A DNA stretch of 56,878 nucleotides, taken from Candidatus Omnitrophota bacterium (GTDB lineage: Bacteria > Omnitrophota > Omnitrophia > Omnitrophales > Aquincolibacteriaceae). Below, piece by piece: positions 2,195-38,224 of this stretch. Both the position numbers and the translations under genes were made by a program. Where the stretch lies: the NCBI GenBank assembly GCA_049324575.1, contig JBMONI010000020.1, forward strand, positions 1 through 56,878, given 5' to 3'. Position 1 is the stretch's first letter; each line of letters opens with the position of its first letter. Below the pieces are notes generated by a model. That model made no database searches. It was not told the origin of the DNA and was given only the letters and a program-made list of their open reading frames with translations.

Positions 2195-2206
2195 CGGGGG
2201 AAGGCT

Positions 2207-3430: not shown

Positions 3431-3617
3431 AGTGCGCCATCCTCCTTGTCTCCATTCTTTTTTCTTTGGATCGGACCCCTTTCGGAGATTTTTAAAAGCA
3501 AACGCAGATAAAAACAGATCATAAAAAAATTTAAAAACTAATAAAGGAATTCTAGGCGCCGTCGATAATCCATAGAGATAATGCTTGGGTGAGGTTTGTT
3601 TATAGGTTAGATGGTGC

Positions 3618-3647
3618 TTGCCGAAGCGTTGCGTTGTGTGATATAAT
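3618..3647 (+). promoter_or_regulatory. Putative sigma70 promoter of the major pilin gene
   Basis: TTGCCG (3618-3623), 18-nt spacer, extended -10 TGaTATAAT (3639-3647) in an AT-rich intergenic region; SD AAGGAGG at 3673-3679. Confidence 0.55.
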
Positions 3648-3687
3648 TAAGCCGAGTACAAGGAAGTTAAACAAGGAGGTTTTTATC

Positions 3688-4110
3688 ATGTCAAAAATAA
3701 CCTTGATCAGGAAAGCTAAAGGCTTCACCCTGATCGAAATCGTGATCGTGATGGTCATTCTTGGTATTTTGGCCATCGTGGCAATTCCGAAGTTCGTGGA
3801 TCTGACGACCGATGCCAAGATCGCCGCGACGAAGGCGACCTTGGGCAGTGTTCGTTCAGTTCTGGCAGTGACATATGCAAGCAACGCCGCGGCGGGTAAT
3901 GCAGCTTTTCCGACGACCGATCTTACGGTCGGTGATTTCGCGGACGGCAAATTACCGGTGAATAAACTCACCGGCAATGATGGTGCCAAAGCTGTTGCTG
4001 CAGCCCCGGCGGGAACTGCTACGGACGCTGCGGATGGTTTCTGGTTCGTGACGACGACCGGTGTTGCCGGCGCGTATTCGGACGGAACCGAAGATACGTC
4101 GACTTGGTAA
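3688..4110 (+). CDS. Major type IV pilin, MshA-like (140 aa from ATG 3688)
   Basis: Strong SD then MSKITLIRKAKG|FTLIEIVIVMVILGILAIVAIPKFVDL; own promoter and terminator. The track's 3589 start is upstream of the promoter. Confidence 0.9.
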   Translation: MSKITLIRKAKGFTLIEIVIVMVILGILAIVAIPKFVDLTTDAKIAATKATLGSVRSVLAVTYASNAAAGNAAFPTTDLTVGDFADGKLPVNKLTGNDGAKAVAAAPAGTATDAADGFWFVTTTGVAGAYSDGTEDTSTW

Positions 4111-4136
4111 TTGGCAGTTCGTTTTCGCAGTCCAAG

Positions 4137-4174
4137 AACGGGGAGATCGTTCCGATCTCCCCGTTTTTGTTTTT
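4137..4174 (+). terminator. Rho-independent terminator after the pilin
   Basis: AACGGGGAGATCG-TTC-CGATCTCCCCGTT stem followed by a T-rich tract. Confidence 0.85.
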
Positions 4175-4231
4175 AAGTTTATCCCCGAAAAACACGATGA
4201 TTCTAAGAGCGCTTTAACCGTCTAGGCATGG

Positions 4232-5968
4232 ATGACCATGAAGGTCCAAGCGGATCTCACGACCTCAGAAAAAAAGTTCAAAGGCACACGGACCCTGGGC
4301 TTGGGGATCGACCCTGGGACGGAGGCCTGGCGTTATGTCCTGACCGATCTTGCGGCAATGCAGGTGCTTCAATGGGGCGAATGTCCAATGAAGGTTTCGC
4401 CCCAAGAAAAAGACAAATTCGTCCGCCAATGGCTGCGTTCTCTTTCCAAGGAAGTTCCGAAACGCCGTCTTCATTCGATCAGCGTCAATATCCAGGGACA
4501 ATCGGTCCTTCTCGGTAAGATCCAGGTTACAAAAGCTTCGCCCGCGGATCAGGAGAACCTTATCGCGGGCGCCCTTGCGGGACAGGTCCCTTTCCCCGCT
4601 GCGAATATGGTCTACTTTTGCCGCGAATATGCGCCGGGGGAGATCAAGCCGGCCGGGGGGGCGCCGGCCGCGGACCCATTATTCCTTCATTATGCCGTGA
4701 CCCAAAGGAATGCCTTGACTTCGATCGTCGAACCGGTCGTGGAGCATTTTCAAATGGTCCCGGATGTGACGGTTCAGGGCTATGCTTTTGAAAGCCTGCT
4801 TCAGACCCTGGGGCTTTCGGAAGAAGGGAAAACCCAAGCGATCGTCAATATCGGGCGGGGGATCACTTCGATCTGCCTCTTCAAATCCGGAAAGCTCCTG
4901 CTCCAACGGGATGTCCCGCTCGCAAGCCAGGACATGACGCGTTCCATCATGATCATGCACCGGGATCCGGCGAACCCCGAGAACATGCTGACCCTTGATA
5001 AGGCCGATGAGATCAAAAAAAGGCTCGATGTGACGCCGGGCCGTGAAATGCTGATTGCGGCCTCAGCGGATGCGGCCGAGATCATGGACCTCTCGGCGCT
5101 CGACGGCAAGAAAGTCTTTCAGTCGGTCCAGGGAGTCCTCTCGGCCTGGATCCAGGACCTCAAACTGACCTTCAGCTATTTTCACCAGAATTTCGAAGCC
5201 GAAAAAGTGACCCAAGTCTATCTCGCAGGGGGAGGGTCTAATCTCAAGAGTTTCCCGGCCTATCTTTCGCAGCAATTGAACGTGCCGGTCGAATACCTGG
5301 CGCATCGCGAAGGACAAGGGACCCTGACCTTGGCGGATGCTTCGGCGGCTCCGGGCCTGCGTTCCGAGTTCCATGCCTACGCGGCCTCTCTCGCTTTATC
5401 CATCAAGCCGGAAGGGTACGCCAGCTTGGGGATCAAACAGCCGGCTCCGAAAAATCTCCAGAAGATCTTTTTTTCAGCGGGCCGTATCGCCGCGGTGCTT
5501 CTGTCGGCGGTCCTGATCACCTGGGCGGTCTTTGTCCAGATCCAGCAATATTCGCTCGGCGATGTCTTCAAAGCGGTCAGCGGGCATCATGATTTCCTGA
5601 AGAAGATCGAATCGCCCTATCTGGAGTTGATGGAATGGCGGAACTTCCAGAAGGAGATCGACAGCACCTTTTATAAGACCTCCGAGATCTTGCAGGGCCT
5701 GAGCAAGACCCTTTCCAAAAAGATCCTGGTCTCCAAGATCGATATCCACCGCGCCGACGAGCGGGTGGTCGTGGAAGGGACCCTTGTGGGGAACGCCAAA
5801 ATGCGGGCGATCGAGGCCTCCGAATTCGCGCGCCTTCTTCGGGCGAGCGAGATGTTCGTTTCGGTCGGGTTCCCCCGTCTGAATGCGACCCCGGCCGGCG
5901 CGGAAGAGGGGACATTCTCGATCGAGGCGAAGATCAAAAAGATCGTCCGAACGGAGAAAGCGGTATGA
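4232..5968 (+). CDS. PilM (actin-like) plus PilN fusion, MshI-like alignment protein
   Basis: PilM motifs LGIDPG, VNIGRGITSI and VYLAGGGSNLK, then one TM helix (RIAAVLLSAVLITWAVFV) and a PilN-like periplasmic domain (VVVEG...SEMFVSV...FSIEAKI). Confidence 0.75.
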   Translation: MTMKVQADLTTSEKKFKGTRTLGLGIDPGTEAWRYVLTDLAAMQVLQWGECPMKVSPQEKDKFVRQWLRSLSKEVPKRRLHSISVNIQGQSVLLGKIQVTKASPADQENLIAGALAGQVPFPAANMVYFCREYAPGEIKPAGGAPAADPLFLHYAVTQRNALTSIVEPVVEHFQMVPDVTVQGYAFESLLQTLGLSEEGKTQAIVNIGRGITSICLFKSGKLLLQRDVPLASQDMTRSIMIMHRDPANPENMLTLDKADEIKKRLDVTPGREMLIAASADAAEIMDLSALDGKKVFQSVQGVLSAWIQDLKLTFSYFHQNFEAEKVTQVYLAGGGSNLKSFPAYLSQQLNVPVEYLAHREGQGTLTLADASAAPGLRSEFHAYAASLALSIKPEGYASLGIKQPAPKNLQKIFFSAGRIAAVLLSAVLITWAVFVQIQQYSLGDVFKAVSGHHDFLKKIESPYLELMEWRNFQKEIDSTFYKTSEILQGLSKTLSKKILVSKIDIHRADERVVVEGTLVGNAKMRAIEASEFARLLRASEMFVSVGFPRLNATPAGAEEGTFSIEAKIKKIVRTEKAV

Positions 5969-6576
5969 ACCTCGCATCGTTACCTCCGATCACGAGATCT
6001 TTCGCGATCCGGGCCGGGATCCTGGGCGGGGTCGCTTTGCTGCTCTGTGTTTTTTGGATCTTCCCGCATCTGATGAAGGTCCGGGAACTCCGCAAAGAAG
6101 TGGATGGGCTGTATCTCGAGAATCAGAAGATCCAGGAATCGGTTCTGCTCGAAAAGAATTCGACCCAAAAACTGGAGGAAATCGAGCGCGAATTGAGACA
6201 ATACGAGGCTTCGGTTCCTACGCCGGCGAAGCTTTCCGCGATCATCAATCAGGTCGGAAGCCAAGCCCAGGCCTACAAGCTGGAACTGGTCTCGATCAAT
6301 CAGACACAGAATATCCCCTATATGAAAGTCTATCCGAAATCGATCCAGGCGAAGGGGGATGCCCTGTTCCTGACGGTCCTCAGCCTGGAGGTCGAAGGAA
6401 GTTTTTCGAAATTAGGCCAATATGTGGCCAGCTTGGAAAAGATCCCGTATCTGATCGTTCAGCGAATGCATTTGCAGCGCAAGGGGGAAGAGACCGCGAA
6501 GGCTTTCAATCTTCGGGCTTCTCTCGAGCTGGGTATCCTGATGCGTTTTCCCAAAGAAGAAATGAACTCCGTTTGA
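5965..6576 (+). CDS. pilO: PilO/MshJ-like protein
   Basis: N-terminal TM, coiled coil, 'LEVEGSFSKLGQYVASLEKIPYLI' ferredoxin-like PilO pattern; overlaps the pilM/N stop. Confidence 0.75.
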   Translation: MNLASLPPITRSFAIRAGILGGVALLLCVFWIFPHLMKVRELRKEVDGLYLENQKIQESVLLEKNSTQKLEEIERELRQYEASVPTPAKLSAIINQVGSQAQAYKLELVSINQTQNIPYMKVYPKSIQAKGDALFLTVLSLEVEGSFSKLGQYVASLEKIPYLIVQRMHLQRKGEETAKAFNLRASLELGILMRFPKEEMNSV

Positions 6577-6597
6577 ACGGAAAAAGGAAGGTGGACT

Positions 6598-7137
6598 ATG
6601 GTCGATGATCCGAAGATCTTGTTATCCAAGAAAGTGGAAGGCTCCAAAGGCAATCCGAAGGCCATGATCCAGATCGTGGTGCTGGCGGTCTTGGGCCTGG
6701 TGCTTGCGGTCCTGCTCTTTAATACTTTTCTGGGAGGGAAGAAAAAAGCCCCGCCTCCGGCGGTGCCCGCTGCGGCGGTCCCCGCGCCTGCGGCGGCTGC
6801 GCCTCCTGCGGCTCCCCAGGCGGTGTCGGCTCCTGCGGCCGCTCAAGACACCGCGAAAACGGTCCCTGCTGTTCCGGGAGTCCCCGCCAGCGGTAATGAA
6901 TGGGGTGCCGACGCCTTTCTTTTTGGGGAGGAGGATGAGGAGGATGCTGGAGCGGACGATACGGGTCGGCTGGAGCTCCAGGGCATTGTTTTCTCTTCTG
7001 AAAATCCCTATGCGATTATCGACGGAAAAATCGTTAAAAAGGGTGATGCGATAGCCGATAATAAGATCGTAGAGATATCTCAGGATGCCGTGGTCCTGGA
7101 GGATGGCCAGGGGGAACGCCAGACGCTGAAAAGCTAG
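6598..7137 (+). CDS. PilP/MshK/GspC-like bitopic protein
   Basis: TM, Pro/Ala-rich linker, C-terminal 'LELQGIVFS..PYAIIDGKIVKKGDAI..KIVEISQDAVVL' beta domain. Confidence 0.65.
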   Translation: MVDDPKILLSKKVEGSKGNPKAMIQIVVLAVLGLVLAVLLFNTFLGGKKKAPPPAVPAAAVPAPAAAAPPAAPQAVSAPAAAQDTAKTVPAVPGVPASGNEWGADAFLFGEEDEEDAGADDTGRLELQGIVFSSENPYAIIDGKIVKKGDAIADNKIVEISQDAVVLEDGQGERQTLKS

Positions 7138-7195
7138 CGCGGGGCGGGCCGGCCGGAGATCCTCGGATCTTAACTTGTAGGATCGGCTTGAACGT

Positions 7196-8131
7196 GTGAC
7201 TTTGGATACTCTGACCGAATCGATCGAAAAACCCGCTGAGGTGCTTCTGGACTCTTTCCAGGGCACCGATCGTTTTGTTACCTTGTTCCACGAGTTTTTT
7301 GGGTTCAAAGAGAATCCCTTTGCGAATACTCCCGATCCTTCGTTCTTCTACCTGAGCCCCAGGCATAAAGAAGCGCTTACGAATCTTGCGTTCGGGGTGC
7401 GTCAGCGTCGTGGTTTTATCGTGATCACCGGCGAGGTCGGTTCTGGCAAAACGACCCTTTGCCGTTATTTTCTCCGTTTTCTTCCGCCTGAAATGAAAAC
7501 GGCGGTGGTCCTGAACCCGATGATCTCGAGTTCTCATTTGCTTGCTTCGATCGCGGCCGATTTCGGGATCCCGGAGCCCGGCCGCAGCAAACGGGTGATC
7601 TATAGATCCCTTTTGAAATTCCTCCTCGAGGGGATCGAGCGCCAGCAGAACGCGTGCTTGGTGATCGACGAGGCCCAATGCCTGAGCCGGGACCTCCTGG
7701 AAGAGATCCGTCTTCTTTCGAATCTCGAGACCTCGAAACAAAAATTATTGCAGATCGTCCTGATGGGGCAACCGGAATTCCAGGGCCGGCTTCGCCAGAC
7801 CGGATTGAGACAGCTGCGCGAGCGGATCAGTATCTACATGCATTTGGACGGGCTCGGCATGGAGGAGGTCGGACCCTATATCCGCCACCGGCTCGAAATG
7901 GGGAGCGTCGGTCCGGTCACGGTCCGTTTTCAGGAGGAGGTCATCGAAAAGATCGCGCGTATGAGCCGCGGGATCCCCCGTTTGATCAATACGATCTGCG
8001 ACCGGATCCTGATGGCGGCCTTCGCGGCCGGGGAACGGGAGATCTCGATGGCGCTTGCGGCCGGAGCTTTCCAGGAAATGAACTTTATCTGCGGCGGGGA
8101 GAAGAAACCGCGGGAGGAAAGACCCACATGA
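7196..8131 (+). CDS. ExeA/GspA/MshM-family AAA ATPase
   Basis: FGFKENPFANTPDPSFFY, Walker A GEVGSGKT, Walker B LVIDEAQ, GQPE, GIPRLINTICD; no peptidoglycan-binding tail. Confidence 0.9.
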   Translation: MTLDTLTESIEKPAEVLLDSFQGTDRFVTLFHEFFGFKENPFANTPDPSFFYLSPRHKEALTNLAFGVRQRRGFIVITGEVGSGKTTLCRYFLRFLPPEMKTAVVLNPMISSSHLLASIAADFGIPEPGRSKRVIYRSLLKFLLEGIERQQNACLVIDEAQCLSRDLLEEIRLLSNLETSKQKLLQIVLMGQPEFQGRLRQTGLRQLRERISIYMHLDGLGMEEVGPYIRHRLEMGSVGPVTVRFQEEVIEKIARMSRGIPRLINTICDRILMAAFAAGEREISMALAAGAFQEMNFICGGEKKPREERPT

Positions 8132-8700
8132 GCCTGATCATGGATGTCCTTAACCGGACCAAAACCTCCTCAAATCAGACGATTTCGCCGGGGGTAAGAC
8201 CGCCGGTCCAGAACATCCCGGAGACAGAGACCCGTACGGTGACCCCGGAACAGAGCCGTCCGGAGATCTTTCCTGGGGAAAGCGGAGGAGAGATCGCGGC
8301 CTATGCGAATGTCTTTGTGGTGGGGGCCGAAGCCCCGGCGGGTTCGGGGCCGTCGTTTTTCCGTCTCATGTTTTATATTTTCCCGGCCGTATTCTTAATA
8401 GGCGCGCTCAGTTACGGATGGATGAGAACGCGGCCCGAAGTGCCGGAGACATCGCCGAAGGCGGCGGCATCGCTGGCCGCTTTTTCTTCGGCTATCTTTG
8501 CGAGCGCAGAAAAGAAGCCGGCGCGCTCTATGCTGGAAGGGACCTTTGTCGGAAGCGGCGGGGCTTATTGTATCCTGGAAGGCGATATTTACCGCGTCGG
8601 GGATGTCTGGAAGAAAGCGAAGCTTGTTTCGATCGAGGCGGGGCGGGTAAAGCTTCAAAAACCGAATGGCAGTGAAGTGGAACTGAGGACCGATCCATGA
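8128..8700 (+). CDS. ExeB/GspB-like bitopic protein (real start at ATG 8128)
   Basis: MSLIMDVLNR resembles the GspB-type N-terminus; single TM (IFPAVFLIGALSYGW); C-terminal LEG..VG..AY.IL.G.IY.VGD beta domain; coupled to the ExeA stop. Confidence 0.55.
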   Translation: MSLIMDVLNRTKTSSNQTISPGVRPPVQNIPETETRTVTPEQSRPEIFPGESGGEIAAYANVFVVGAEAPAGSGPSFFRLMFYIFPAVFLIGALSYGWMRTRPEVPETSPKAAASLAAFSSAIFASAEKKPARSMLEGTFVGSGGAYCILEGDIYRVGDVWKKAKLVSIEAGRVKLQKPNGSEVELRTDP

Positions 8701-10256
8701 TGAGAAAAAAATACTTTTGGGTTCAACGGGCGGAGCGGGCACTCGCCTCGGGCTGTATCGTTTTATTGACGCTCGGAGCGCCGGTGGGCGCGGCGGAACC
8801 TGTCGGAGGGGTTCCGGGCCCGGAAAAGATCATCTCGATCAATCTGACGGAAGCCGATATCGGGATCGTTTTTCGCGTGCTGGCGATGGAGGCCGGCGTC
8901 AATATCGTGACGGGGCCTGAGATCAGCGGCAATGTGACGATCCAGCTGACGAATGTTCCCTGGCAGAGCGCTTTTGATACGATCGTGAAAACCTATGGCT
9001 ATGCGTATGAAAAAGAGGGGAATATTTTCTACGTGACGACCGAGGAAGCCATGAGCAAAAGGCGGTCTCTGGGGGTGAGGACCGAGGTCTATGACCTCAA
9101 GTATGCCAAGTTATCGGAAGTGATCGCGGCCTTGGGGGCTTCGGTCCGGAATGTCCGCATCCAGCCGGTGCAAGGGACCAATCAGATCATGCTTACAGCG
9201 TCTCCCTCCGAGGTCGAATCAGCGCGTGAGATCATCAGCCAAGTCGATTTTCGTCAGCCCCAGGTCCATATCGACGCCAAGATCATCCGCACGGCCCTAT
9301 CCAAAGGGGAGAATATGGGCGTGGATTGGGGGACGGCCATCCGCATGAGCGGGGCCCGAAGACCCTGGACGTTCCCGTTTGATGATGACGGTGCCAGCAA
9401 TCAAATATCGAAATTCATGCAGAAATACAGTATGTATCCTCAAGGACAGACGGCCAGCGAGTCGACCTCCACCATCACGGATAGCGGAGGGACTGCGACG
9501 ACCAACTCCCAGGATTTTCCCATGGCGCGCAGTTTCCCTTATATGCAGCCGGAAGATTTCACCTTTGGTACGCTTGATTTTTCACAGTTCTCCGTGGCGA
9601 TCAATATGCTGAAGACCCGGGCGAATACCAAGGTCGTATCCAATCCGAGGATCGTGGTGCAGAACCATCAGCCGGCGAGGGTCCAGGCGGGCCGCGAGAT
9701 CGGCCTTCCGACCTTCGAGCGGAACGAGACGACCGGATCGCTCGAGATCACAGGATACGAGCCCCGCAATGACGGGATCTCCCTCGATGTGACGCCCCAT
9801 ATCATCAATAAAAAAGAGATCCTGCTCACCGTGAAACCGGAATTGACCCGCTTTCTTGGCTTTCAGGAAGTGATCACGGGAGAGAACGTGCTTTCGCCGG
9901 AATTCGAGACGACGGTTGCGGAGACCCAGGTCCTGATCAATAGCGGGGACACGCTCGTGATCGGAGGTCTGATCAATGAGGCCGAGACCGACAGCCACAG
10001 AAAAGTGCCTTATGTCGGCGATATCCCGCTTCTTGGTTGGGTCTTCAAAAGGGTGGCGCCCACCAAAGAGCGGTCGGAGACGATCATTTTTGTGACCGTT
10101 CGAGTTGCCGATGACCGTTTTAATCAAGAGGCGCTTGAGAACTGGGAAAAAACGGAGGAGGCTCTCGCCGAATTCAAGCGCGAGAACGAGAAGTTCATGA
10201 AGTATTCAAAAATGGACAATAAGCTCGAGGAAGCCCTTGAAACCCCAAAAGGATAA
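8697..10256 (+). CDS. Secretin (PilQ/GspD/MshL family)
   Basis: Signal peptide, STN-like ISINLTEADI...NIV, N-domain, 'RQPQVHIDAKII', 'VVSNPRIVVQNHQPA', 'GISLDVTPHI', 'KVPYVGDIPLLGWVF', 'ETIIFVT'. Confidence 0.93.
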   Translation: MMRKKYFWVQRAERALASGCIVLLTLGAPVGAAEPVGGVPGPEKIISINLTEADIGIVFRVLAMEAGVNIVTGPEISGNVTIQLTNVPWQSAFDTIVKTYGYAYEKEGNIFYVTTEEAMSKRRSLGVRTEVYDLKYAKLSEVIAALGASVRNVRIQPVQGTNQIMLTASPSEVESAREIISQVDFRQPQVHIDAKIIRTALSKGENMGVDWGTAIRMSGARRPWTFPFDDDGASNQISKFMQKYSMYPQGQTASESTSTITDSGGTATTNSQDFPMARSFPYMQPEDFTFGTLDFSQFSVAINMLKTRANTKVVSNPRIVVQNHQPARVQAGREIGLPTFERNETTGSLEITGYEPRNDGISLDVTPHIINKKEILLTVKPELTRFLGFQEVITGENVLSPEFETTVAETQVLINSGDTLVIGGLINEAETDSHRKVPYVGDIPLLGWVFKRVAPTKERSETIIFVTVRVADDRFNQEALENWEKTEEALAEFKRENEKFMKYSKMDNKLEEALETPKG

Positions 10257-28723: not shown

Positions 28724-31700
28724 GTGAAAAGAGCCGTCGCTTTATTTGCGTTGGTGACGTTTGTGGTGACGAACCACTGCGTGAGCCCTGCGTTCGGAGC
28801 CGGGGTCTGGACGGATGCTGCAAAACCCGCGATCCGGGACGCCATTCCGTCGGAGGCTCTTCGCACTCTGCGGATCCCCGATCATCTCGGCACCGTCGAA
28901 GAACATTTTGAAGGGACGAAAGGCAAGACCGTGCTCGTCATCCAGGATGCGCATTCGATCCCCGACGCCCAGCTGGCCATTCATCGCCTGATCGACCATT
29001 TCCGCCGCCAGTACGGTGTGCGCCTCGTTGCGGTCGAAGGGGCTTCCGCCAAACTCGACGCCGTGATTTTCCGCGCATTCCCGGACAAAAAACTCCTGAA
29101 GGACGTTTTCAAAAGTTATCATGAGAAAGGCGAGCTTGCCGGCGCCGCGGCAGCCGCCGTTTTTGGCGATCCGGGCGCCGATTATGTCGGCGTCGAACAA
29201 TGGGGGCTTTACGAGGAGGGGGTCAGCCTGTATCTGGCGGCGATGGAAAAACAGCCGGCCATTCTCGAAACGCTCCGCGCCGAGCAGGAGGCCCTCGATC
29301 GGAAAAAACAGGAGATCTATTCGGCCGAGCTTCTCGAGGTCGACCGCGCGCTGGAGGCCTTCGAGGAAGAGCACGCCGATATTCTCGGGACCCTGAAAAC
29401 GCTTGCGAAATATCGCGCGCCCGAGGCCGGTTCGGAGATCGCCGCCCTTTTGCGCGAGACCGGGCACCCCGTTTCCGATCTCGACCAGGCGAATATCGAA
29501 GTCCGGGAGCTTGGGGCGATCGTCTCGAAGCATTTGCGCGCTTTGCCGCCCGATGCCCTTTCGAAAGAGAAACTCAGGGCTTTCCACGAAAAAGAGCAGG
29601 CCTTCATGACCTCTGCCATCACGCCCCATGCCTTCGGACTTTTTCTGAAAGAGGTCGCCGAGGCCGAAGGGCTCAAAGTCGAGACCTCCGAGGCGCTTGC
29701 CTCGCTGATGGACGGACAGCAAAAACTCCGCGATATCAAAGGAACGCGCTTTTTCGAACGTTTTAACGATTACGCGGCTTCCGTCAAGGAAAAGCTCTTC
29801 GCCAGCGACGACGAGCGCGATCTCGACGCCCAGACCGACGAACTCGGCCTTTGGCGGCGCTTTGCGATGCTCGAACTCTCGAGCAAAGACTGGGAGCGGA
29901 TCAAGGAAGAATTAAGAATTAAAAATGAAGAATTGAAAATGCAGGATCGGGAAAAGACAAATCCTCTCCTTCGTTCTTCACTCTTAATTATTAATTTTAA
30001 ATTATTCGCTGCGCATATGGCCTTCTACATGAACGCCGAGGCCCGCGACGGCGAATTCATGAAGAACCTTTCGCGCGAGATCGGCGGGCGGCAGGCCAAG
30101 TCGGCCGTCTTCGTGGCGGGCGGTTTCCACGCCGAGGCGATGACGCGCCGTTTCCGCGAAGCGGGGATCTCCTATGTGCTCATCATGCCGAAGATCGGTC
30201 TTTTGCCCGAGAACCCCGCTTACCGCGACCATATGCGGGGGCTCGTTTCCTGGCGCGATTATTTCGAGGTCGAGAACAGCCGCATCGATCTCTATAAGGC
30301 GTTCGTGCGCGCGACAAGGGACAAGCTGCTGGGGCGGGAAGGACGCATGGCGAAGGACGAAGGGCGCGGCGCGTCCCTCGTCTCTCGGTCCTCTTCTTCA
30401 GGTCTCTCCGATCCGCGCCTTCTCAAAGATTGGCGCGACGGGATCATCCGTGAAATGGCCGGCCAGGGCGCGATCGAACGCTCCGGCGAGTACACAAAAT
30501 TCCTGGATGAGGTCGCGGGTCCGCAGCCGAAGGACCCCGAACTTGAAAAACGCCTTGCGCGCGTGGACGCTTTCGTCGAAGGCCTCAAACGCCTCGAGTC
30601 CGAGAACGCCATCACGCCCGACAATGTTTTGAAGCTATTTCAGCCTGCGACGGTTCAGGATCCGTGTGCCGTGGTTCCTTTTGCCCCAGGCAACAGTGTC
30701 CCGGGCGGGTGGGTAGTTCGGCCTTCCGGCTTGGCCGTCCCTCTTGAATATGCCGAGCCCACAGCCGTCAGTCCTCAGTTGCCAGATCAACCCGGGGCCG
30801 TAGCCCCAGTATCCGGTCCCCGCGCGGAAACGCGGATGACCCCATATAAGTATAATGTAACAGCTGCAATAAGGAGAGTTAATGCATCGCAACAAAAGGC
30901 TGCATCCAAAGACAGGAGTTATATTTTCAGCCGTTTTTTGACCCCCGTTTTTGGCGCGGTGATCGCATTGCTGCTCATCGATGCACTTACCGGAGGCGGT
31001 ATCGTCAATGTAGTGGTTGCTCTCTGGAAAAGTCTGCATCTTTTTGAAGCGCCGATCTTCCAGCCCGCAGCAGCGGCGGGTATTTTTGGTTTGTTTGGTA
31101 TCCCTGTTGGTTCCCGCGCGGAAATACGGAGTCCGTTCCTCGATTTTATCGGTCGGCAGAGCTTTTGGACGCTTTTGACCGTCGGATTGGTTTCGACGCC
31201 GACCATGTTTGCGGTTATTCAAATGAGTCTCGCGAGCGGAGCCGTGGTGGCTTTTCTTTCGGGGCTTTTGGGGGGAGGCGTTTTTGCGTCCGCGATCCTT
31301 TACCTGATGTATCTGGCGAATCTTTACCGTGGGAATCTGTCGGAATTTGCGGGCGGATTGATCCGCAACGCTTCCTTTCTCCGGCCGGTTGTCCAGATGG
31401 CGGAAGAACGTTTCGCCGAACGACTTCATGACGATGTCGCGGCGCATTTCACGGAATCTTATCTCATTGAGCCCGAGCGAATGCAGGATTTTATCCGGGG
31501 ATGGACACAAGCGAGTTTTCTTCGAGGGTTTTTCCTGTCCGAACAAAGCCCAATGATCTCGAATATTTCCGTAGATGCACAAAGTCCGGAGGGGCAACCG
31601 TCAACCCTCCGCATGAATTTCAGAAGCGGAAGGGAAATTCTCCTTAAGTGGACCGTCGACGGAGAACGCGCGAAAGTTGAGACTGTGATCCAGCCTCGCG

Positions 31701-34700
31701 GCCCAATTTCCCGCGCGGAAATGAGAAATGGGGCTGCGAAGGCCCTCGCCTTGGCAGGGACCGCAGGGATCCTGTATGTGGCTCTGATGATTGCACCGGA
31801 CCTGCGCGGAGTTCCGCTAGCGCCTGATTTGACCGTTCCCGCAATAACGGAACATATCAATTCGATCATCGGTCTTTTGGGGAACATGTTTCAAGGCCTG
31901 TTCCTGTGGGCGCGGGAGAATCCAGGGCAGGCTTTCGGAGGCGTTGTCGTGTTCGGAGCGCTTCGCCAGATTATTCGTTCATCTTCCCGCGCGGAGTCGA
32001 GGATGGTGCCGGCTGAAGCGGAAATACAGCCCGAAGGGCTGACGCGGCCTGTGATTCTTGGTCTCGTTACCTTGACGACGGTGGTTGTCTTTGGCGCGGT
32101 GTGGGCGGGATTCGCGGTCCTGACGGGTTTATTCGGCGCTTCAGTGGCGCAAGCCGTGATGTTGCCTTTGTTGGCGATCATCGTTGTCGGGGCGGGTTTT
32201 ATGTATGCCCGTCCCCAAGTCTTTACCGGGCTCAAAGGATTTGTCCAGGACTTGCGAACGGAGCAGCCTGATGATACGGAGGCTATTGCCCGGCTGACAG
32301 AACTGCAAGAGACCGCAACGGAGATCCTGAGAAGCCAAGAGACCCTAGCCGGAAAGACGGCATCTGCAAGAGAAAAAAGAAACGCCCGTGATAATCTCGA
32401 TTTTTTGATCCGGGGGCTTCCGGTATTTATTGCAGAAGCGAGGCTAGTTTCGGAATTTGTCGACGATGCCTCCTTGAGTGTTGATTTGGAGCAGCTAGCG
32501 GATAGTTTTGGGCAATTCATCGGGAATGCAGATCTTCGAAAAGAGCAGATCATTATATTGCCCAAGGATTTGAAGGAAGCTTTAGCCGAAATATCCGAGA
32601 AACTTCGAAATAGTATCGAAGCTTTGACCCGCTTGCCCGGGGGTGAGCAGGACCAGGTCGCAGCTGAGCCGCGAGACATTCCGATGTGGGCCGTCTTTAT
32701 GGCGGTGCTCGGGATTCATATTTTGGTCATCGGTTCTGCGCTGCTTTACCAATATTTGAGAAGTCCGAGCGGCGCTCAAGCGCTTGCCGATGTTTCTGCG
32801 GTTACGGCGCTTGCGGGCGCCATGCTGGCCTCTTACAGCCCCTTCGCGATCCCGCTCGGATTTCTCGCGGGCATCGTTTATCTCATCATGGGCACCCGCG
32901 ACCGCCGCGCTGGAATAACCGCTGATGGACAAGAAGGCCCTTCCCCGACAGCCGGCCGCGCCGAGAATCGGATGGTGGAAAACCAGGGGGGGGGTGCGCC
33001 ATCCATAGACATACTAGCTTTGAGACTATTAGCAAGATTTTCTCCAGAAGAATTGAAGACATTAGCGGCGGTATCCAAAATGAATCCCGAGGCTCTTGCG
33101 ATCATTGCCGCCAGTCCAATTTTCCGCCAGACATTAGAAGCCCTTGCCGCTCTTAATCCACTTGGGAAGCAAGAAGTCGAAATTTTGGGACCAGGGAGAC
33201 TCGATTTGACGTCAGGCGGTCGCGCGGAGATAAGAATGGCGATGGCTCGTCGGCAATTTCTGAAAGCCGCGGCGAGCTTTGCTATCGCGAGTTTCATGGG
33301 GGGATGTTCTCGTTTTTTCATCCAGTCCGAAAGACCTGACTATCCCTTCCATCGTTATGCTGGGCCGCTTGATCTCGATGCCATGGCGCGCGTTCCGCAG
33401 TTGGCCGGGGCGCTTTCGCGTGATGAAATAAAACGGTTGGGGACCGAGCCCTTTCCGGACCGTCATAAAGACCGCGAAGGACTGGGGAAGGTCAGTTCAT
33501 TGGATGAAGCAGAGTTTGCGAGAAAGATCTCGGCGATCGCGGCGATCCTGGATGAGAAAAACAGAAATGAATTCAGTCGGGAGGAACGTTTTAAAGCAGC
33601 GCGGCTTTTGTGGAGGATCTTTGAAGAGGATGATAAAGCCATGGGGACGGATGGAGAATATTTGGGAGGGCGGCCGCTCCAGGCGTTGCAAGCGGTCGTG
33701 ATCGCATTGACGAAGATGAGCCCCGAAGATCTGGAGCTGAAAGTGGTCGATTATCCTGTGAGACTTCATGCTCTCTATGACCGTGTCATGAATTTTTTGG
33801 CTCGCAAAGCCGATCGCGGTCGCCCCCGGTCGATCGACGATCCAAAGATCGAACCGCGCTATCACGGCATGGTTGGACAAGCCCATCTTGCGGATGTCCT
33901 TGCTGCGGCGATCGTTTATACGCATCCGGCATTTGAACGCCTGCGCTATTCCATATTGAACGGGGCGCATTCCATGAGAGAGGCTGCGGAAGCCAAGCTC
34001 AGGGCCTATAGCGGAGCTTCTCGAAATCCGAAAGTTATCCTCAATGAGGGGTTCATGCCTTGGAAAACGACCGATGATGCTGATGCGATTGCAGCTCAGG
34101 CGCTGGGGGAAGAACCTCAGCGTGCGGGCGTGGTATCAGACATGAGCGCGCTTGATGAGACCGATCAGGCGATCGCTGAATATTTCAAATACCAGCGAAA
34201 GAACAAAAAGCTTCTTTTGAGCAATGAACCGGCAGTCATAGAAAAATATTTTAATGCTGCCGGGATTCCGATCCGCGATCCGGGGGCGGTAACAGAACGA
34301 TTGAGGCAACTCTACAATCAGGCGTTGAAAGAGGTCAGTAACAATGGTCTCCAAAGATTTTCGTCATTAGAACTTTTAAATAAGATGGAAAGCTTATTGC
34401 TTACCCCCCGCGCGGAGTTGAGGAAGCGTGAGGGAACGCCAGCAACTGCGCGACAACCCCGGAGGGCGAGGGGACAGAAAGCCGCAGCTCCAAAACGAGC
34501 GGAGCGGAAAAAAAGAACATCCGTGGCCCCAATCACCGGATATCCTCAAATTACATTCTGGGGTGAAATAGAAGGGCCGGGAGTAGGAGTTCCTGCTGCC
34601 GTTCCATGGAAAAATGAAAAATTTCCAGAGCCTACACCGGGGCGAGAGCCGAGTTTGCCGCGAGAAGGGCCGAACTTTACCGCGGCGGTGACATTGGAAG

Positions 34701-37700
34701 TCGCGGGGGAGCCGGTCATTGTTTCCAGCGGGACCGAGATGGAAGAGCTTATTCGCGAGGAAGAATTCGTTCGGACTCCAGAACAGGCGAAAATCCAAGT
34801 GACGGCGCTTATTACGAGCATAAAGGAGAGATTTCCTGCGTTGGAGCAGACGAAGCTTGATGCGCTGCAAGAAGCTCTCGAAAAACGGCTGAAAACCTAT
34901 ATCCAGGAAGGGGATGAAACAAGTATTTTAAAAGCCGGGGCTTTGCTGGCGGCAGTGCGCATTCTTTTCGAACGCTATGAGGTCGTCCTTCCTGCGGAAG
35001 CAGTGACTTCTCCGAAGATGCAATTGATATCTCAGGGGAGGATCGAAGAGGCTCCTTTGAGCGATTCGAGCCGATGGTTCGAGAATGCGGGTGGTTGGCA
35101 GATCTCTGTCGATTCCGAAGACGCCCTGATTGCAGCTCCTGCAAGACCCGCTGAGCCTGAAGCTCCTGCTTCCGAAGAGCCGGCGGAAGCGATGTCCTCG
35201 ATCGAAGTCTTCAATGAAAATGGCGAATTTATGGGGATGGCTCCTCAAGAGGTGATCGATGCGGTCCTCGCGGAAGATTCCCGGGCCGGACAAATGTTTT
35301 CCCAGGGGGGATTCATTACCATTATCCAGGATCGGGGGACATGGGAAAATAAAGCGCAGGTGTTTGGATCGCGGGGAGTTGTTTTCATTATTCAGATGAA
35401 TGTTTCCTATGCGGCCTATGATGTTGATGGCCAAGCCCGGACTCAACTGACCGATGCGGAACGCAGTCTGGTCAGTGACGGATTGACGGCGGCTTTCGGC
35501 CAACAGGAAGAGATCCCACCGCTCGGTTTTGTCGAGCTTCGCCGAGGAAGTGTCCCGCCCGAAGAACGTCCTGATTCGCTGTTTGTTTTTGATGTGGTCA
35601 GCGAAGATGAGCAGCCTGTTTTTACGGGGATCGGTTACAAAACCAAGCTGGAGGATGTGACTCCGGACGGAACTGTGCGGCCTGCTGTTCCGCCGCCTTC
35701 AGCGGCTCCTTCTGCCGCGACACGTTCCACCCAGGTTGATTTCAAACTCGGCAGTATCAAGGAGTTTTCACTATTGACTGGCACGGATACCGTGGCAGTG
35801 CATATGGACACAGCAGGGACTCCGGGTGGGGCGATCATCGATATTCAGGGCCTTATCCGAGATGATCTGAATCCTCAGCGGGATATCGACAGGGGCATTC
35901 AGATCAATAATGTGGTTAAGCTAGGTGATTGGAAAGAAGATGAAGAAGGCCGATTGGCAGGGATCCGTATTGGAGAGGCAAGTCTTACGGATCTCGGAGA
36001 GTTCGCGCAGAGTAATGGTTTTGATCAGCCCATTCGGTCCTGGGAAAGAGTGATTCGGGTTGTGTCGCATGAAGCCCCTACGGAGGAAGGCGGACAGGTC
36101 ATCGAAAGAGCGAATATTGAGGCTGCGACACGGGCAGTTGTCGAGCTGGCCGCCAAAAATGGCGCGAAAAAGATCGTGATGCCACTTTTCGGGACAGGAA
36201 GCCGAGAAGCATCGGCCCGGGATGTCGCGAGCTGGATGCGCGCGGCTGTCGAGGCTTATATCCAGGAAACGGGATCTCCGATTGAAATAACGATCGTGAC
36301 TAACGATGAGGAAATCTTTGGCCAGATCAAAGACATGGCTTCCTCCCGCGCGGAGACGAGGGCGGATATCGGCGAGATGATTGAGCAGGTCAATAGGATC
36401 CTCGACTCAATTCCAATGCCGTCACCGAGAATGGAGGATCTTAGCGGCGTGCGGAATGTTTTCGCCCCCCAAAATACACGGGTGGGATGGCTTGAAATGG
36501 GAGCGATGCTCCGCGCTTTCGAAAAACACCTTGCCAACCGCGCCGGGGATAGGACACCCCTTACGAACGACGAGCTCGAAATCATTCGCTTTGTGTTGGA
36601 GAAGTTGCGCTTGTCGGAGAACAAAGGACGTCTTGAAGCGCTTCGACAAATGACGCCGGTTGTTGCGAAGAAATTGGAGAACATTGATCTGGATCAACTG
36701 GAAAACCAGGTTAACGCGCGACTCGGTCTTACAACGGCGGCGATTCCGGTTGCGAACGGTGCCTTGGCGGGAGCTTACGGTAACCTCTTCAAAACCGCTT
36801 ATGTCATGTTCGAGACACTTTATGCGAGCAATGTAGCCGGGGAAGTGCTGACGGCGCTTCAGGGCGATCTCGATCCTTACGCATTGATCGAGGCCATGTC
36901 GGCCCTTGCGATCGTTTTAGCGGCTGATCAGATCGAACAAAAAACCCCTGACATGGTTCTGGACATGCTTCAAGGGGCGCTCACTGCTGTCGAAGAGCGA
37001 CTTTCATCCTTCCGCGCGGAGTCGAGGATGGTGCCGGCTGAATTTGCTCGCGCAATAGCTTCACGCTCTCAAATAGGCGGACCGGTCCGGGGCGCAGAAA
37101 GAGAGGGGTTTGCTCTTGCGCAATTGAACGTAGCGAGAAACGCGATCCTTGAAGCATTAAAGAGGGTCCCAGGCGATTTTGAGGCAGAAGTGAGTTTGGG
37201 GAATGAACCGGCGGCTTGGATCACTTCGAGTGAACTGAGCACGCGGATCCAGAATAACCCGACAGGGACCGAGAATGAGCGGAATCAACTCAGGAGGCTT
37301 ATTGATGCTGCGAATGAACTTTTGAATTTACATGCAAAACAACCTGCGGCAAGGCCCCGCGCGGAACAGAGGCAAGCCGAGATGCCGAAGGTGGTGGTGG
37401 ATCTTGCCGGTGAAACGGCCCAGGTCATTTTGACGGGGAGCGATCCGGCCAGGGTGGCGGGGAGGATCCCGGAGATCCTCAGGATGCAGGGGCTCTCGGC
37501 CCAGGTATTCGGAACTATGGTCCGGAACCAGGCGGCGGTCGCGATCCAGCGGCTCGAAACGGTTGGTGTCGTGAGCCCCTACTTGGTGACGCCGGAAGTG
37601 GCGCGCGCCGTGGTCGATTTTGTGATCGAGAACTTCGTCGCCCGGATGAATTTGATCAGCGAGGAAGAGGGGAATTTCGTGATCGGACTCGATACGGAAG

Positions 37701-38224
37701 TGACGAACAGTTTCTCGGAGGCTTTGGCCAAGGTCGCGCCTTATATCCAGCTTGCGCTGGTCAACCGCGGCATGCTTAAGCAAATGGGCCGGGTGAGGGG
37801 GATGAATGTCCAGGGAGTTCCGGATTTTGAGAACATCAGAAAACCTGCCATGGCCGATAATGAGACGATCCCCGTGGTGAATGGCGAGGCGAGTCCGGAT
37901 TATCTCGGGACCAATCCGATCGTGATCGGGATCACGACCGAGGCAGGGGAGATGACGCGGGAGGATCCTTATCTTCTGGTCGTTGAAAATGTCATTAAAC
38001 TGCTTGCGGCAGTCTCGCTTGCTCGACGCGTGAAGAATACCAAGATCAAGGACGATCCTAGGGTTCAGAGCGCGATGGAGGCCGAACTGATTAAAGATCT
38101 TTTTGAGACCGGGGTCGAGACGGTCATTTCCTTCAAGAATGGTGTCCTGTCAGTGAACCGGCCGGCACTCTACGACTTCATCAAGGATTTCGCGACCCGC
38201 AAGGCGGTCGAGAAAGCCGCGTAA
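28724..38224 (+). CDS. Giant (3166 aa) modular exported protein: TraB/Tiki/ChaN-like N-terminal domain, modules delimited by RAExR motifs, Macro-like domain
   Basis: Uninterrupted 9.5-kb ORF with SD; Sec signal MKRAVALFALVTFVV...PAFG; QDAH / VAVEG / RD / GGFH motifs; ten in-frame R-A-E-x-R motifs. Confidence 0.9.
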   Translation: MKRAVALFALVTFVVTNHCVSPAFGAGVWTDAAKPAIRDAIPSEALRTLRIPDHLGTVEEHFEGTKGKTVLVIQDAHSIPDAQLAIHRLIDHFRRQYGVRLVAVEGASAKLDAVIFRAFPDKKLLKDVFKSYHEKGELAGAAAAAVFGDPGADYVGVEQWGLYEEGVSLYLAAMEKQPAILETLRAEQEALDRKKQEIYSAELLEVDRALEAFEEEHADILGTLKTLAKYRAPEAGSEIAALLRETGHPVSDLDQANIEVRELGAIVSKHLRALPPDALSKEKLRAFHEKEQAFMTSAITPHAFGLFLKEVAEAEGLKVETSEALASLMDGQQKLRDIKGTRFFERFNDYAASVKEKLFASDDERDLDAQTDELGLWRRFAMLELSSKDWERIKEELRIKNEELKMQDREKTNPLLRSSLLIINFKLFAAHMAFYMNAEARDGEFMKNLSREIGGRQAKSAVFVAGGFHAEAMTRRFREAGISYVLIMPKIGLLPENPAYRDHMRGLVSWRDYFEVENSRIDLYKAFVRATRDKLLGREGRMAKDEGRGASLVSRSSSSGLSDPRLLKDWRDGIIREMAGQGAIERSGEYTKFLDEVAGPQPKDPELEKRLARVDAFVEGLKRLESENAITPDNVLKLFQPATVQDPCAVVPFAPGNSVPGGWVVRPSGLAVPLEYAEPTAVSPQLPDQPGAVAPVSGPRAETRMTPYKYNVTAAIRRVNASQQKAASKDRSYIFSRFLTPVFGAVIALLLIDALTGGGIVNVVVALWKSLHLFEAPIFQPAAAAGIFGLFGIPVGSRAEIRSPFLDFIGRQSFWTLLTVGLVSTPTMFAVIQMSLASGAVVAFLSGLLGGGVFASAILYLMYLANLYRGNLSEFAGGLIRNASFLRPVVQMAEERFAERLHDDVAAHFTESYLIEPERMQDFIRGWTQASFLRGFFLSEQSPMISNISVDAQSPEGQPSTLRMNFRSGREILLKWTVDGERAKVETVIQPRGPISRAEMRNGAAKALALAGTAGILYVALMIAPDLRGVPLAPDLTVPAITEHINSIIGLLGNMFQGLFLWARENPGQAFGGVVVFGALRQIIRSSSRAESRMVPAEAEIQPEGLTRPVILGLVTLTTVVVFGAVWAGFAVLTGLFGASVAQAVMLPLLAIIVVGAGFMYARPQVFTGLKGFVQDLRTEQPDDTEAIARLTELQETATEILRSQETLAGKTASAREKRNARDNLDFLIRGLPVFIAEARLVSEFVDDASLSVDLEQLADSFGQFIGNADLRKEQIIILPKDLKEALAEISEKLRNSIEALTRLPGGEQDQVAAEPRDIPMWAVFMAVLGIHILVIGSALLYQYLRSPSGAQALADVSAVTALAGAMLASYSPFAIPLGFLAGIVYLIMGTRDRRAGITADGQEGPSPTAGRAENRMVENQGGGAPSIDILALRLLARFSPEELKTLAAVSKMNPEALAIIAASPIFRQTLEALAALNPLGKQEVEILGPGRLDLTSGGRAEIRMAMARRQFLKAAASFAIASFMGGCSRFFIQSERPDYPFHRYAGPLDLDAMARVPQLAGALSRDEIKRLGTEPFPDRHKDREGLGKVSSLDEAEFARKISAIAAILDEKNRNEFSREERFKAARLLWRIFEEDDKAMGTDGEYLGGRPLQALQAVVIALTKMSPEDLELKVVDYPVRLHALYDRVMNFLARKADRGRPRSIDDPKIEPRYHGMVGQAHLADVLAAAIVYTHPAFERLRYSILNGAHSMREAAEAKLRAYSGASRNPKVILNEGFMPWKTTDDADAIAAQALGEEPQRAGVVSDMSALDETDQAIAEYFKYQRKNKKLLLSNEPAVIEKYFNAAGIPIRDPGAVTERLRQLYNQALKEVSNNGLQRFSSLELLNKMESLLLTPRAELRKREGTPATARQPRRARGQKAAAPKRAERKKRTSVAPITGYPQITFWGEIEGPGVGVPAAVPWKNEKFPEPTPGREPSLPREGPNFTAAVTLEVAGEPVIVSSGTEMEELIREEEFVRTPEQAKIQVTALITSIKERFPALEQTKLDALQEALEKRLKTYIQEGDETSILKAGALLAAVRILFERYEVVLPAEAVTSPKMQLISQGRIEEAPLSDSSRWFENAGGWQISVDSEDALIAAPARPAEPEAPASEEPAEAMSSIEVFNENGEFMGMAPQEVIDAVLAEDSRAGQMFSQGGFITIIQDRGTWENKAQVFGSRGVVFIIQMNVSYAAYDVDGQARTQLTDAERSLVSDGLTAAFGQQEEIPPLGFVELRRGSVPPEERPDSLFVFDVVSEDEQPVFTGIGYKTKLEDVTPDGTVRPAVPPPSAAPSAATRSTQVDFKLGSIKEFSLLTGTDTVAVHMDTAGTPGGAIIDIQGLIRDDLNPQRDIDRGIQINNVVKLGDWKEDEEGRLAGIRIGEASLTDLGEFAQSNGFDQPIRSWERVIRVVSHEAPTEEGGQVIERANIEAATRAVVELAAKNGAKKIVMPLFGTGSREASARDVASWMRAAVEAYIQETGSPIEITIVTNDEEIFGQIKDMASSRAETRADIGEMIEQVNRILDSIPMPSPRMEDLSGVRNVFAPQNTRVGWLEMGAMLRAFEKHLANRAGDRTPLTNDELEIIRFVLEKLRLSENKGRLEALRQMTPVVAKKLENIDLDQLENQVNARLGLTTAAIPVANGALAGAYGNLFKTAYVMFETLYASNVAGEVLTALQGDLDPYALIEAMSALAIVLAADQIEQKTPDMVLDMLQGALTAVEERLSSFRAESRMVPAEFARAIASRSQIGGPVRGAEREGFALAQLNVARNAILEALKRVPGDFEAEVSLGNEPAAWITSSELSTRIQNNPTGTENERNQLRRLIDAANELLNLHAKQPAARPRAEQRQAEMPKVVVDLAGETAQVILTGSDPARVAGRIPEILRMQGLSAQVFGTMVRNQAAVAIQRLETVGVVSPYLVTPEVARAVVDFVIENFVARMNLISEEEGNFVIGLDTEVTNSFSEALAKVAPYIQLALVNRGMLKQMGRVRGMNVQGVPDFENIRKPAMADNETIPVVNGEASPDYLGTNPIVIGITTEAGEMTREDPYLLVVENVIKLLAAVSLARRVKNTKIKDDPRVQSAMEAELIKDLFETGVETVISFKNGVLSVNRPALYDFIKDFATRKAVEKAA
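29909..30003. repeat. Heptad-periodic hairpin element embedded in-frame in the giant gene
   Basis: GAATTAAGAATTAAAAATGAAGAATTGAAAATG...TTCTTCACTCTTAATTATTAATTTT; AT-rich island in GC-rich CDS, similar to 28321-28428. Confidence 0.8.
30338..30399. repeat. Second heptad-periodic hairpin in-frame in the giant gene (GAAGGAC / GTCCCTC type)
   Basis: GAAGGAC GCATGGC GAAGGAC GAAGGGC - spacer - GTCCCTC GTCTCTC GGTCCTC TTCTTC. Confidence 0.65.
30821..37372 (+). repeat. Ten dispersed in-frame R-A-E-x-R motifs (CGC GCG/GCC GAR NNN MGR)
   Basis: Motif starts at 30821, 31115, 31712, 31988, 32957, 33221, 34409, 36347, 37013, 37358; 31987-32017 and 37012-37042 are identical over 31 bp. Confidence 0.92.

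Follow-up and report, generated by a model that had tools for sequence, protein, structure and literature searches.

A Tat-type lipoprotein signal directly behind an internal junction motif suggests that giant Omnitrophota proteins may be cut into separate proteins

Why would a signal peptide of the N-terminal type lie some 1500 residues inside a protein? This question is raised by a giant open reading frame (ORF) of a Candidatus Omnitrophota bacterium, found on the 56,878-nucleotide contig JBMONI010000020.1 (assembly GCA_049324575.1), the whole of which we refer to as the window. In this ORF of 3166 residues, a twin-arginine translocation (Tat)-type lipoprotein signal peptide, MAMARRQFLKAAASFAIASFMGGC, directly follows the sixth of ten copies of a pentapeptide, RAExR (Table 1). 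We favour, at a probability of roughly 0.55, a reading in which the ORF encodes a polyprotein that would be cut at these junctions, exposing a Tat-lipoprotein precursor, and comparison with homologs suggests more broadly that the giant proteins of this family may be cut into separate proteins.

As encoded, the signal starts at M1505, with its twin arginines at 33248–33253. The stretch A-R-R-Q-F-L-K (residues 1508–1514) matches the Tat consensus (S/T)-R-R-x-F-L-K save for the residue at −1, and the twin-arginine motif is followed by AAASFAIASFMGGCS, a 15-residue uncharged run with a 13-residue Kyte-Doolittle mean of 1.1–1.55. Read from M1505, the peptide also satisfies the PROSITE lipoprotein rule PS51257, which we take to consist of six non-charged residues, [LIVMFWSTAG]2, [LIVMFYSTAGCQ], [AGS] and C, with the Cys at 15–35 and a K or R near the N-terminus; both reading by eye and a regular expression gave SFAIAS-FM-G-G-C24, with R5 and R6. 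The hydrophobic region (h-region) was not called as a transmembrane (TM) helix in a 19-residue hydropathy scan, its 13–15 residues lacking the length and the hydrophobicity for such a call. Tat was the top hit for the peptide in both profile libraries, though below threshold, and the whole of module 7, the segment that the signal opens, scored 12.5 bits against Pfam TAT_signal. A scan of the window for RR.[FGAVML][LIVMF] with 12 or more uncharged residues in a row behind it returned this site as the sole Tat-like one in a credible frame, besides one N-terminal signal at 10258. The window signal is good by rule and moderate by profile. The original prediction had placed junction 6, M1505 (33236), the RR (33248), the Cys (33305) and the module end (34408, with RAELR starting at 34409) correctly, and its statement that the signal lies about 1500 residues inside the protein, directly after RAEIR, is borne out by M1505 of 3166. 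Its description of a (S/T)RRxFLK motif with hydrophobic stretch and lipobox holds by rule, with the qualification that the residue at −1 is Ala and that the hidden Markov model (HMM) scores are sub-threshold.

The pentapeptide itself is conspicuous both in this gene and in its relatives. RAE.R occurs ten times in the giant ORF versus four times in the remaining six-frame translation of the 56.9-kb window, and 137 non-redundant family proteins (411 thousand residues, kaa) contain 497 occurrences of R[AS]E.R, set against 15 of R[AS]D.R, 13 of R[AS]E.K, 8 of R[AS]Q.R and 28 of E[AS]R.R, which served as control patterns in the same proteins. A search of 5.8 billion proteins had returned 71 homologs of 1.8–5.2 kaa, from Omnitrophota where named, with one Endomicrobia exception; GTDB genomes, when scanned, yielded 80 loci, almost all of them in Omnitrophota metagenome-assembled genomes (MAGs), with at least eight paralogs in one MAG and five in another, and more distant versions of the family occur in Elusimicrobia and Auribacterota. 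The junction logo across the family reads [A/S/P]-R-[S/A]-E-[L/V/A/M]-R-[S/A/T], the overall form being [RK][SAT]ExR between small residues, and this enrichment of A/S/P before and S/A/T after the motif is as expected of a protease site. Variants include RTEMR (S.DRTEMR in L039, 7 copies) and KSEVR (P0001, residue 1707), and one clade (P0031, P0064, P0065) has A[AS]SLG or GKSLG junctions instead; the recurring junction peptides thus differ between clades.

Several observations support the view that the [RK][SAT]ExR junctions, RAExR in the window, mark module boundaries. Homologs match only the first ~650 residues of the query, a few of them also the last 290 residues and one (P0001) also the macro region, so that in whole-protein comparison relatives are confined to modules 1 and 11 and the macro part of module 8, each remaining module being unique or singly shared. 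The sets of Pfam domains differ from one homolog to the next (kinases, methyltransferases, PP2C/FHA, GNAT, adenylate kinase, phosphoglucomutase, radical SAM, HEAT/WD40 repeats and others), the domains of P0032 and P0009 fall within junction-bounded segments, and no homology or domain crosses a junction. Junction 8 of the window aligns column for column with the KSEVR of P0001, and the AlphaFold2 (AF2) model of module 1, hereafter the head, turns disordered at residues 643–704, just ahead of junction 1. In at least ten proteins the motif stands 3–5 residues from the C-terminus (...RAEVRKAA or similar), and tandem junctions 15–35 residues apart occur in P0005 (residues 680/697), P0022 (735/752/772), P0015 (3047/3067 and 4071/4091) and P0032 (847/881), where cutting would release short spacer peptides.

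Export-type leaders recur directly behind these junctions in other members of the family. We scanned the family for RR.[FGAVMLI][LIVMFA] with an uncharged hydrophobic run, taking as the post-junction zone the 25 residues after each junction, or 3.1% of positions, and found 7 of 23 internal Tat-like sites within this zone, versus 0.71 expected (binomial p = 4e-6; ~10-fold), indicating that RRxFL motifs are not randomly placed relative to junctions. Generic hydrophobic segments are just 1.45-fold enriched after junctions, and the enrichment is therefore specific to signal-like sequences. Positive-inside flanks of TM segments, considered as a cause of the Tat enrichment, were rejected on the same ground. 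Further Tat-like cases lie outside the strict filter (L029 at residue 1351; L028, ...SSRRYFLG...VLAQS; L016; L048), and leaders of the Sec type, ending in AxA-like sequences, stand behind junctions in L009, L012, L027 (twice), L030 and L052. Tat-plus-lipobox leaders beyond the window number two, in L029 and P0031, both of them post-junction; that of P0031 follows the other junction type, with ASSLG and then ...SRRKLIQDLSVAAAGVALFGLSGC. TAT_signal was the top Pfam hit for 8 of the 10 post-junction segments (45-residue peptides), and four post-junction peptides (P0020, L042, L029 at residue 2221, and P0031) passed a curated cutoff. Where the original prediction asked for signal-predictor scores, the curated profiles give a divided outcome: these four family peptides pass and the window peptide lies below the cutoffs.

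Some signal-bearing modules of homologs, namely P0006 residues 673–1391, L042 residues 360–643, L009 residues 648–1051 and P0031 residues 2727–3492, contain HExxH (HESDH, HELFH, HEFIH, HEQIH, HEKQH) and may be exported metalloproteases; a Pfam search of eight signal-bearing homolog modules gave no significant domain. Module 7 of the window has no HExxH motif.

The module behind junction 6 has one detectable relative, which bears directly on whether its leader is used. All family proteins were cut at their junctions, giving 578 modules, among which the only match to module 7 was L029 residues 1356–1924, from the Omnitrophota MAG STB_104 (phmmer E = 1.1e-6 within this small set; pairwise BLASTP E = 1e-7, 25% identity over 244 residues of the mature part, with collinear offsets). 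Residues 83–314 of module 7 align with L029 residues 1445–1673. This relative likewise opens at a junction, RSEMR (residue 1351), followed by RRDFLGMMLKTSAAVVAAAVVPGLTGC, a Tat motif and lipobox (RRDFLG...LTGC); the lipobox Cys lies 27 residues past the junction in L029 and 24 in the window, and RR-x-F-L and the h-region are kept in both. That a leader is kept at 25% identity argues that it is used. Beyond this pair, no homolog of module 7 was found in a word-indexed search of 5.8 billion proteins or by exhaustive phmmer against 1.84 billion representatives, and a two-sequence profile built with the L029 relative gave no further match. A single-sequence AF2 model of module 7 is all-alpha at low confidence (predicted local distance difference test, pLDDT, 54.7). 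The original prediction had offered a captured former gene as the origin of the module; since these three large searches returned no stand-alone homolog, recent capture of a free-standing gene is unsupported. Its contention that the signal backs RAExR as a true module boundary, by contrast, is strengthened by the junction-linked Tat sites, by homology that ends at junctions and by the similar module of L029.

These features can be arranged into a processing scheme. The modules would be made as one polypeptide, because the ORF is uninterrupted. A protease would then act at each junction, the simplest position for the cut being behind the final Arg as P1 and ahead of a small residue or Met as P1'. 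Cutting at junction 6 would free MAMARRQFLK... as the N-terminus of module 7, which, following the rules for such sequences, would be exported folded by Tat, lipidated, cut by signal peptidase II at Cys1528 and anchored in the membrane.

A candidate for the junction protease is the head, on account of its universal conservation, its invariant His/Glu/Arg/His set and the clade-varying junction types. It is the only part common to the whole family, with invariant or near-invariant residues D75, H77, E105, R441, G466, G467 and H469 (QDAH77, E105G, GGFH469), and its AF2 model (pLDDT 78) has a split alpha/beta core interrupted by a ~260-residue helical insert. Foldseek gave no significant match in PDB or BFVD (best hits E of at least 0.2), phmmer and two profile searches found no PDB sequence match, and Pfam and NCBIfam held none; judged by its model, the head is a confident fold-level unknown, and new. 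Erythromycin-esterase-like structures (3b55, 2rad, 6xcs) were among the top Foldseek hits (E = 0.26–2.7, probability at most 0.14, not significant), and H77...E105...R441...GGFH469 resembles what we take to be the GxxH...E...R...GxxH pattern of the TIKI / TraB-PrgY-GumN / erythromycin-esterase superfamily. The head shares with that superfamily a split alpha/beta core with His, Glu, Arg and His, and differs in that its core is broken by the helical insert and its matches are not significant, so that the resemblance serves as a lead only. Identification of the head as a known protease was set aside, no significant fold or sequence match having been obtained.

Several points weigh against the polyprotein reading. 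The processing scheme rests throughout on what can be read from the sequence. The window peptide scored 15.9 bits (E = 0.012) with Pfam TAT_signal (PF10518), below the cutoff of 22.7, and 14.3 bits with TIGR01409, below the cutoff of 16.7, and its residue at −1 is Ala, not Ser or Thr. The L029 relative, cut after the final Arg, would be left with RRDFLG and without an n-region. No protease matches the head significantly, and the head would lie outside the cytoplasm because of its N-terminal signal or anchor; as a Tat substrate needs to be released inside the cytoplasm, the head is disfavoured as the protease for junction 6. The junctions moreover carry a codon signature, described below, that a purely protein-level site does not explain. 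No Tat, Lgt or Lsp genes lie within the window, and no canonical Tat motif was found at the start of ordinary-sized ORFs in ~1.23 Mb of loci (the window, Omnitrophota loci and a few Elusimicrobia or Auribacterota loci, L001–L084), a sample too small to infer the absence of Tat. A scan of the window and 84 loci for TatA-like motifs found none, and a literature search on Omnitrophota and twin-arginine returned nothing relevant. The nearest case of a Tat-like start in an ordinary ORF was a lipoprotein leader with RR in the Elusimicrobia locus L084.

An alternative that we consider unlikely, though still to be reckoned with, is that the protein stays whole as a multi-pass membrane chain, in which RRQFLK...C would be an inert remnant of a gene once fused in, or an internal re-entrant or anchor segment, and the junction a flexible linker. 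Preprints on Omnitrophota treat long proteins as single membrane-anchored chains, and modules 2–5 contain ~ten TM helices, but the h-region behind junction 6, at 13–15 residues, is too short to span a membrane stably. Basic residues ahead of hydrophobic segments are common in membrane proteins, yet such a tendency sits poorly with a ~10-fold enrichment of Tat-like sites against 1.45-fold for hydrophobic segments in general. The sub-threshold HMM scores of the window peptide would suit a relic; a relic should decay, however, and the leader is kept in the L029 homolog at 25% identity, just as RRxFL, lipobox and AxA leaders recur beside junctions in many unrelated modules. A pentapeptide with defined flanks, occurring 20- to 60-fold over control patterns, is likewise more than a linker needs.

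Internal initiation, which we rate as rather improbable as the full explanation, would produce the same N-terminus without proteolysis at junction 6: translation would begin at the ATG at 33236 (or 33242), with the GGAG in the RAE codons acting as a Shine-Dalgarno (SD) sequence. The GGAG at 33226–33229, within junction 6, lies 6 nucleotides (nt) before the ATG at 33236, and similar GGAG/GAGG elements stand at a like distance in several ordinary genes of the window; at 4 of the 10 window junctions, however, the Glu codon is GAA, abolishing GGAG, and most family junctions (RSELR = CGC TCC GAA CTN ...) have neither an SD sequence nor a Met. Met occupies position +1 after five of the ten window junctions (30836, 32003, 32972, 33236 and 37028), which exceeds the family-wide tendency, Met being outside the top five residues at this position in the family logo. 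Homologs also show Met where an ancestral start would lie (MNRRNFL in L042, MNRRDFM in L016, MDRRAAIK in L048, MKSLGL in L009), but it is absent after the junction in the signal-bearing modules of P0006, P0020, L053, L028 and L029. With no stop codon after M1505, the product would span 1662 residues to the end of the ORF unless junction 7 were cut, and internal initiation would therefore still require cleavage. Junction-plus-KAA tails at the C-terminus and tandem junctions are impossible as start sites, and because of them processing fits the family better than initiation. Internal initiation is plausible in the window gene and is not a general mechanism of the family. Cleavage and internal initiation, the two routes by which the original prediction had the module acquire a new N-terminus, are both proposals drawn from sequence features.

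At the nucleotide level, the first Arg codon is CGC at all ten window junctions (33% in the ORF overall) and the Ala codon GCG at nine; CGC-GCG-GAR is present at nine of the ten and is preceded by C at eight, and 8 of the 11 occurrences in the window of the resulting 8-nt palindrome, CCGCGCGG, lie at junctions. In the family at large, over 305 junctions, CGY encodes the first Arg in 79% versus a background of 40% and TCN encodes Ser in 97% versus 68%, the last Arg being at background. A recombination site and concerted evolution are possibilities for this signature. An RNA hairpin role for CCGCGCGG was rejected, as the palindrome is too short, and no Rfam families or tRNAs were found in the window. 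Junctions 4 and 9 with their flanks (31978–32017 and 37003–37042) are identical in 38 of 40 nt, both encoding ...RAESRMVPAE, which points to a recent copying of a junction at the DNA level. The duplicated 40 nt and the codon signature may reflect module shuffling, added to a protein-level site.

We think it very improbable that the junction acts only at the nucleic-acid or co-translational level, through recombination or microhomology-driven shuffling between paralogs or through 2A-like skipping, and is no protease site at all. The codon signature in window and family, the near-identity of junctions 4 and 9, and the several paralogs per genome with mix-and-match modules would all suit a shuffling site, which would explain the module architecture but not the export signals directly behind the junctions, and which is compatible with proteolysis rather than a replacement for it. 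The amino-acid motif is, moreover, kept across clades despite differing codons (RAE/RSE/RTE/KSE), and its last Arg uses all six codons, indicating selection at the protein level. We know of no 2A-like mechanism in bacteria.

Equally remote is a version of the polyprotein reading in which the proteins, from Omnitrophota regarded as parasitic or predatory, would be delivered to a prey bacterium and be cut inside it, the export machinery of the prey reading the post-junction Tat, Sec and lipoprotein leaders and so placing effectors, several of them with HExxH motifs, in its periplasm or membranes, a notion hinted at by the dozen canonical Tat motifs in the giants versus none opening ordinary genes (~1.2 Mb of loci).

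A Pfam and NCBIfam scan of the whole giant protein gave a single match, the Macro domain (residues 2424–2504), and the ~ten TM helices of the hydropathy scan all fall in modules 2–5 (30836–32971), which are small (92–323 residues), mostly made up of these helices, and for which no homologs were found; their release would yield small integral membrane proteins. In module 8, the macro part has a homologous module in P0001, at the start of which a SAATR in the window (35711–35725) aligns with a RAEVR junction. This SAATR looks like a decayed junction, and window module 8 may therefore be two fused modules.

The C-terminal end of the family is also distinctive. Of 103 complete family members, 74 have -AA or -SA as their last residues, the window protein being one of them (KAA-stop at 38213–38221), and among the loci examined 30 of 39 giants end in this way versus 26 of 1026 ordinary ORFs. 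This end is often found within a longer conserved tail such as YLEMKARAEVRKAA, junction motif included, and may be a C-terminal recognition tag.

The surroundings of the gene are those of an ordinary chromosome, with type IV pilus/type II secretion system genes, ThiC, IspG, IspH, Era, a ThiF family protein and an AddB-like nuclease. The type IV pilus or type II secretion cluster (581–10256) comprises a GspE/PilB-type ATPase, a GspF/PilC protein, a PilM-like protein and a secretin, and secretin and pilus or secretion genes together imply a diderm envelope. No neighbouring gene of the giant-ORF family is conserved across the loci compared.

Table 1. Coordinates of the giant ORF, its putative modules and junctions, and the predicted signal within the window (aa, amino acids).
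Feature	Position	Strand	Description
Giant ORF	28724..38224	+	3166 aa, GTG start, GGGAG 8 nt upstream
Putative polyprotein layout	28724..38224	+	11 modules, ten RAExR junctions
RAExR start positions in the ORF	aa 700, 798, 997, 1089, 1412, 1500, 1896, 2542, 2764, 2879
Module 1 (head)	28724..30835	+	hydrophobic helix aa 2–18, alpha/beta and helical domain, disordered tail aa 643–704, junction 1
Junction 1	30821..30835	+	RAETR, then M
Junction 2	31115..31129	+	RAEIR
Junction 3	31712..31726	+	RAEMR
Junction 4	31988..32002	+	RAESR, then MVPAE
Junction 5	32957..32971	+	RAENR, then M
Module 6	32972..33235	+	88 aa, soluble, no homolog, ends in junction 6
Junction 6	33221..33235	+	RAEIR (CGC GCG GAG ATA AGA), aa 1500–1504
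Tat-type lipoprotein signal peptide (predicted)	33236..33307	+	MAMARRQFLKAAASFAIASFMGGC, directly after junction 6
n-region	33236..33247	+
Twin-arginine motif	33248..33265	+	RRQFLK
h-region	33266..33304	+	AAASFAIASFMGG
Lipobox Cys	33305..33307	+	Cys1528
Mature part of module 7 (predicted)	33308..34408	+	all-alpha in low-confidence model, no Pfam domain
Junction 7	34409..34423	+	RAELR; end of module 7
Macro (ADP-ribose-binding) domain, in module 8	35993..36235	+	PF01661, 25.4 bits versus cutoff 22
Junction 8	36347..36361	+	RAETR; aligned with KSEVR (aa 1707) of P0001
Junction 9	37013..37027	+	RAESR, then MVPAE
Junction 10	37358..37372	+	RAEQR
Module 11 (tail)	37373..38221	+	conserved in ~7 members; ends ...RKAVEKAA
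CCGCGCGG at junctions	30820–30827, 31114–31121, 31711–31718, 31987–31994, 34408–34415, 36346–36353, 37012–37019, 37357–37364		8-nt palindrome

Giant proteins of this phylum have been described before, as 'multi-enzyme metabolic clusters' (bioRxiv 10.64898/2026.06.07.730766) and Archaeovorin-type giants (bioRxiv 10.1101/2023.11.21.568195) of at least 10 kaa, which resemble the present family in that a single chain carries many unrelated Pfam domains and has an N-terminal signal or TM helices. These preprints (bioRxiv 10.64898/2026.06.07.730766; 10.1101/2023.11.21.568195) suggested that such chains are cleaved into more than one product and stated that the cleavage points are unknown, and one of the two treated signal-peptide calls at internal positions as artefacts and suppressed them. 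Neither describes the head module, the [RK][SAT]ExR junction, the -AA tail or the post-junction signals, and our literature search returned no paper tying Omnitrophota to polyproteins. The junction pentapeptide, together with export signals of the N-terminal type, would thus constitute the first concrete cleavage-site hypothesis for the giant proteins of Omnitrophota, and the motif offers a rule by which giants can be split into modules for annotation and structure prediction. If the polyprotein reading is true, many 'giant proteins' would be strings of ordinary proteins, and the proteomes, localisations and lifestyles of Omnitrophota would need to be read again.

Bacteria are generally thought to express sets of proteins through operons rather than polyproteins, and the elements of the proposed scheme have their counterparts in several separate systems. 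Tat-dependent lipoprotein signal peptides have been described in Streptomyces and haloarchaea; the window signal shares with them the twin-arginine consensus (RRQFLK), an h-region of 13–15 residues and a lipobox Cys at 24, and differs from them in lying 1,504 residues inside an ORF and in scoring below the Pfam and TIGR01409 cutoffs. MARTX toxins, which are autoprocessed by a cysteine protease domain (CPD), are, like the present family, multi-kaa proteins with conserved terminal regions and variable mix-and-match modules, which in MARTX are released by inter-module cuts. In the family, however, the junction is a pentapeptide that contains Arg, where MARTX has a Leu site, and membrane and exported modules are included; no RtxA repeats or CPD were hit by Pfam or NCBIfam on the whole giant protein, and no homology to MARTX was detected.

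A further parallel is offered by structural polyproteins of viruses in which signal sequences lie internally, among them alphavirus capsid-pE2 and flavivirus C-prM. As in the proposed scheme, one ORF there contains a defined cleavage junction and a signal that becomes active once an upstream cut makes it N-terminal. The window gene differs in being cellular and set in a housekeeping chromosomal context, in carrying Tat and lipoprotein rather than endoplasmic reticulum (ER) signals, in having unrelated enzymes as its modules, and in showing no detected homology to these viruses. Processing at the junctions would bring to bacteria a principle of RNA viruses, that of a targeting signal which stays silent until an upstream cut exposes it.

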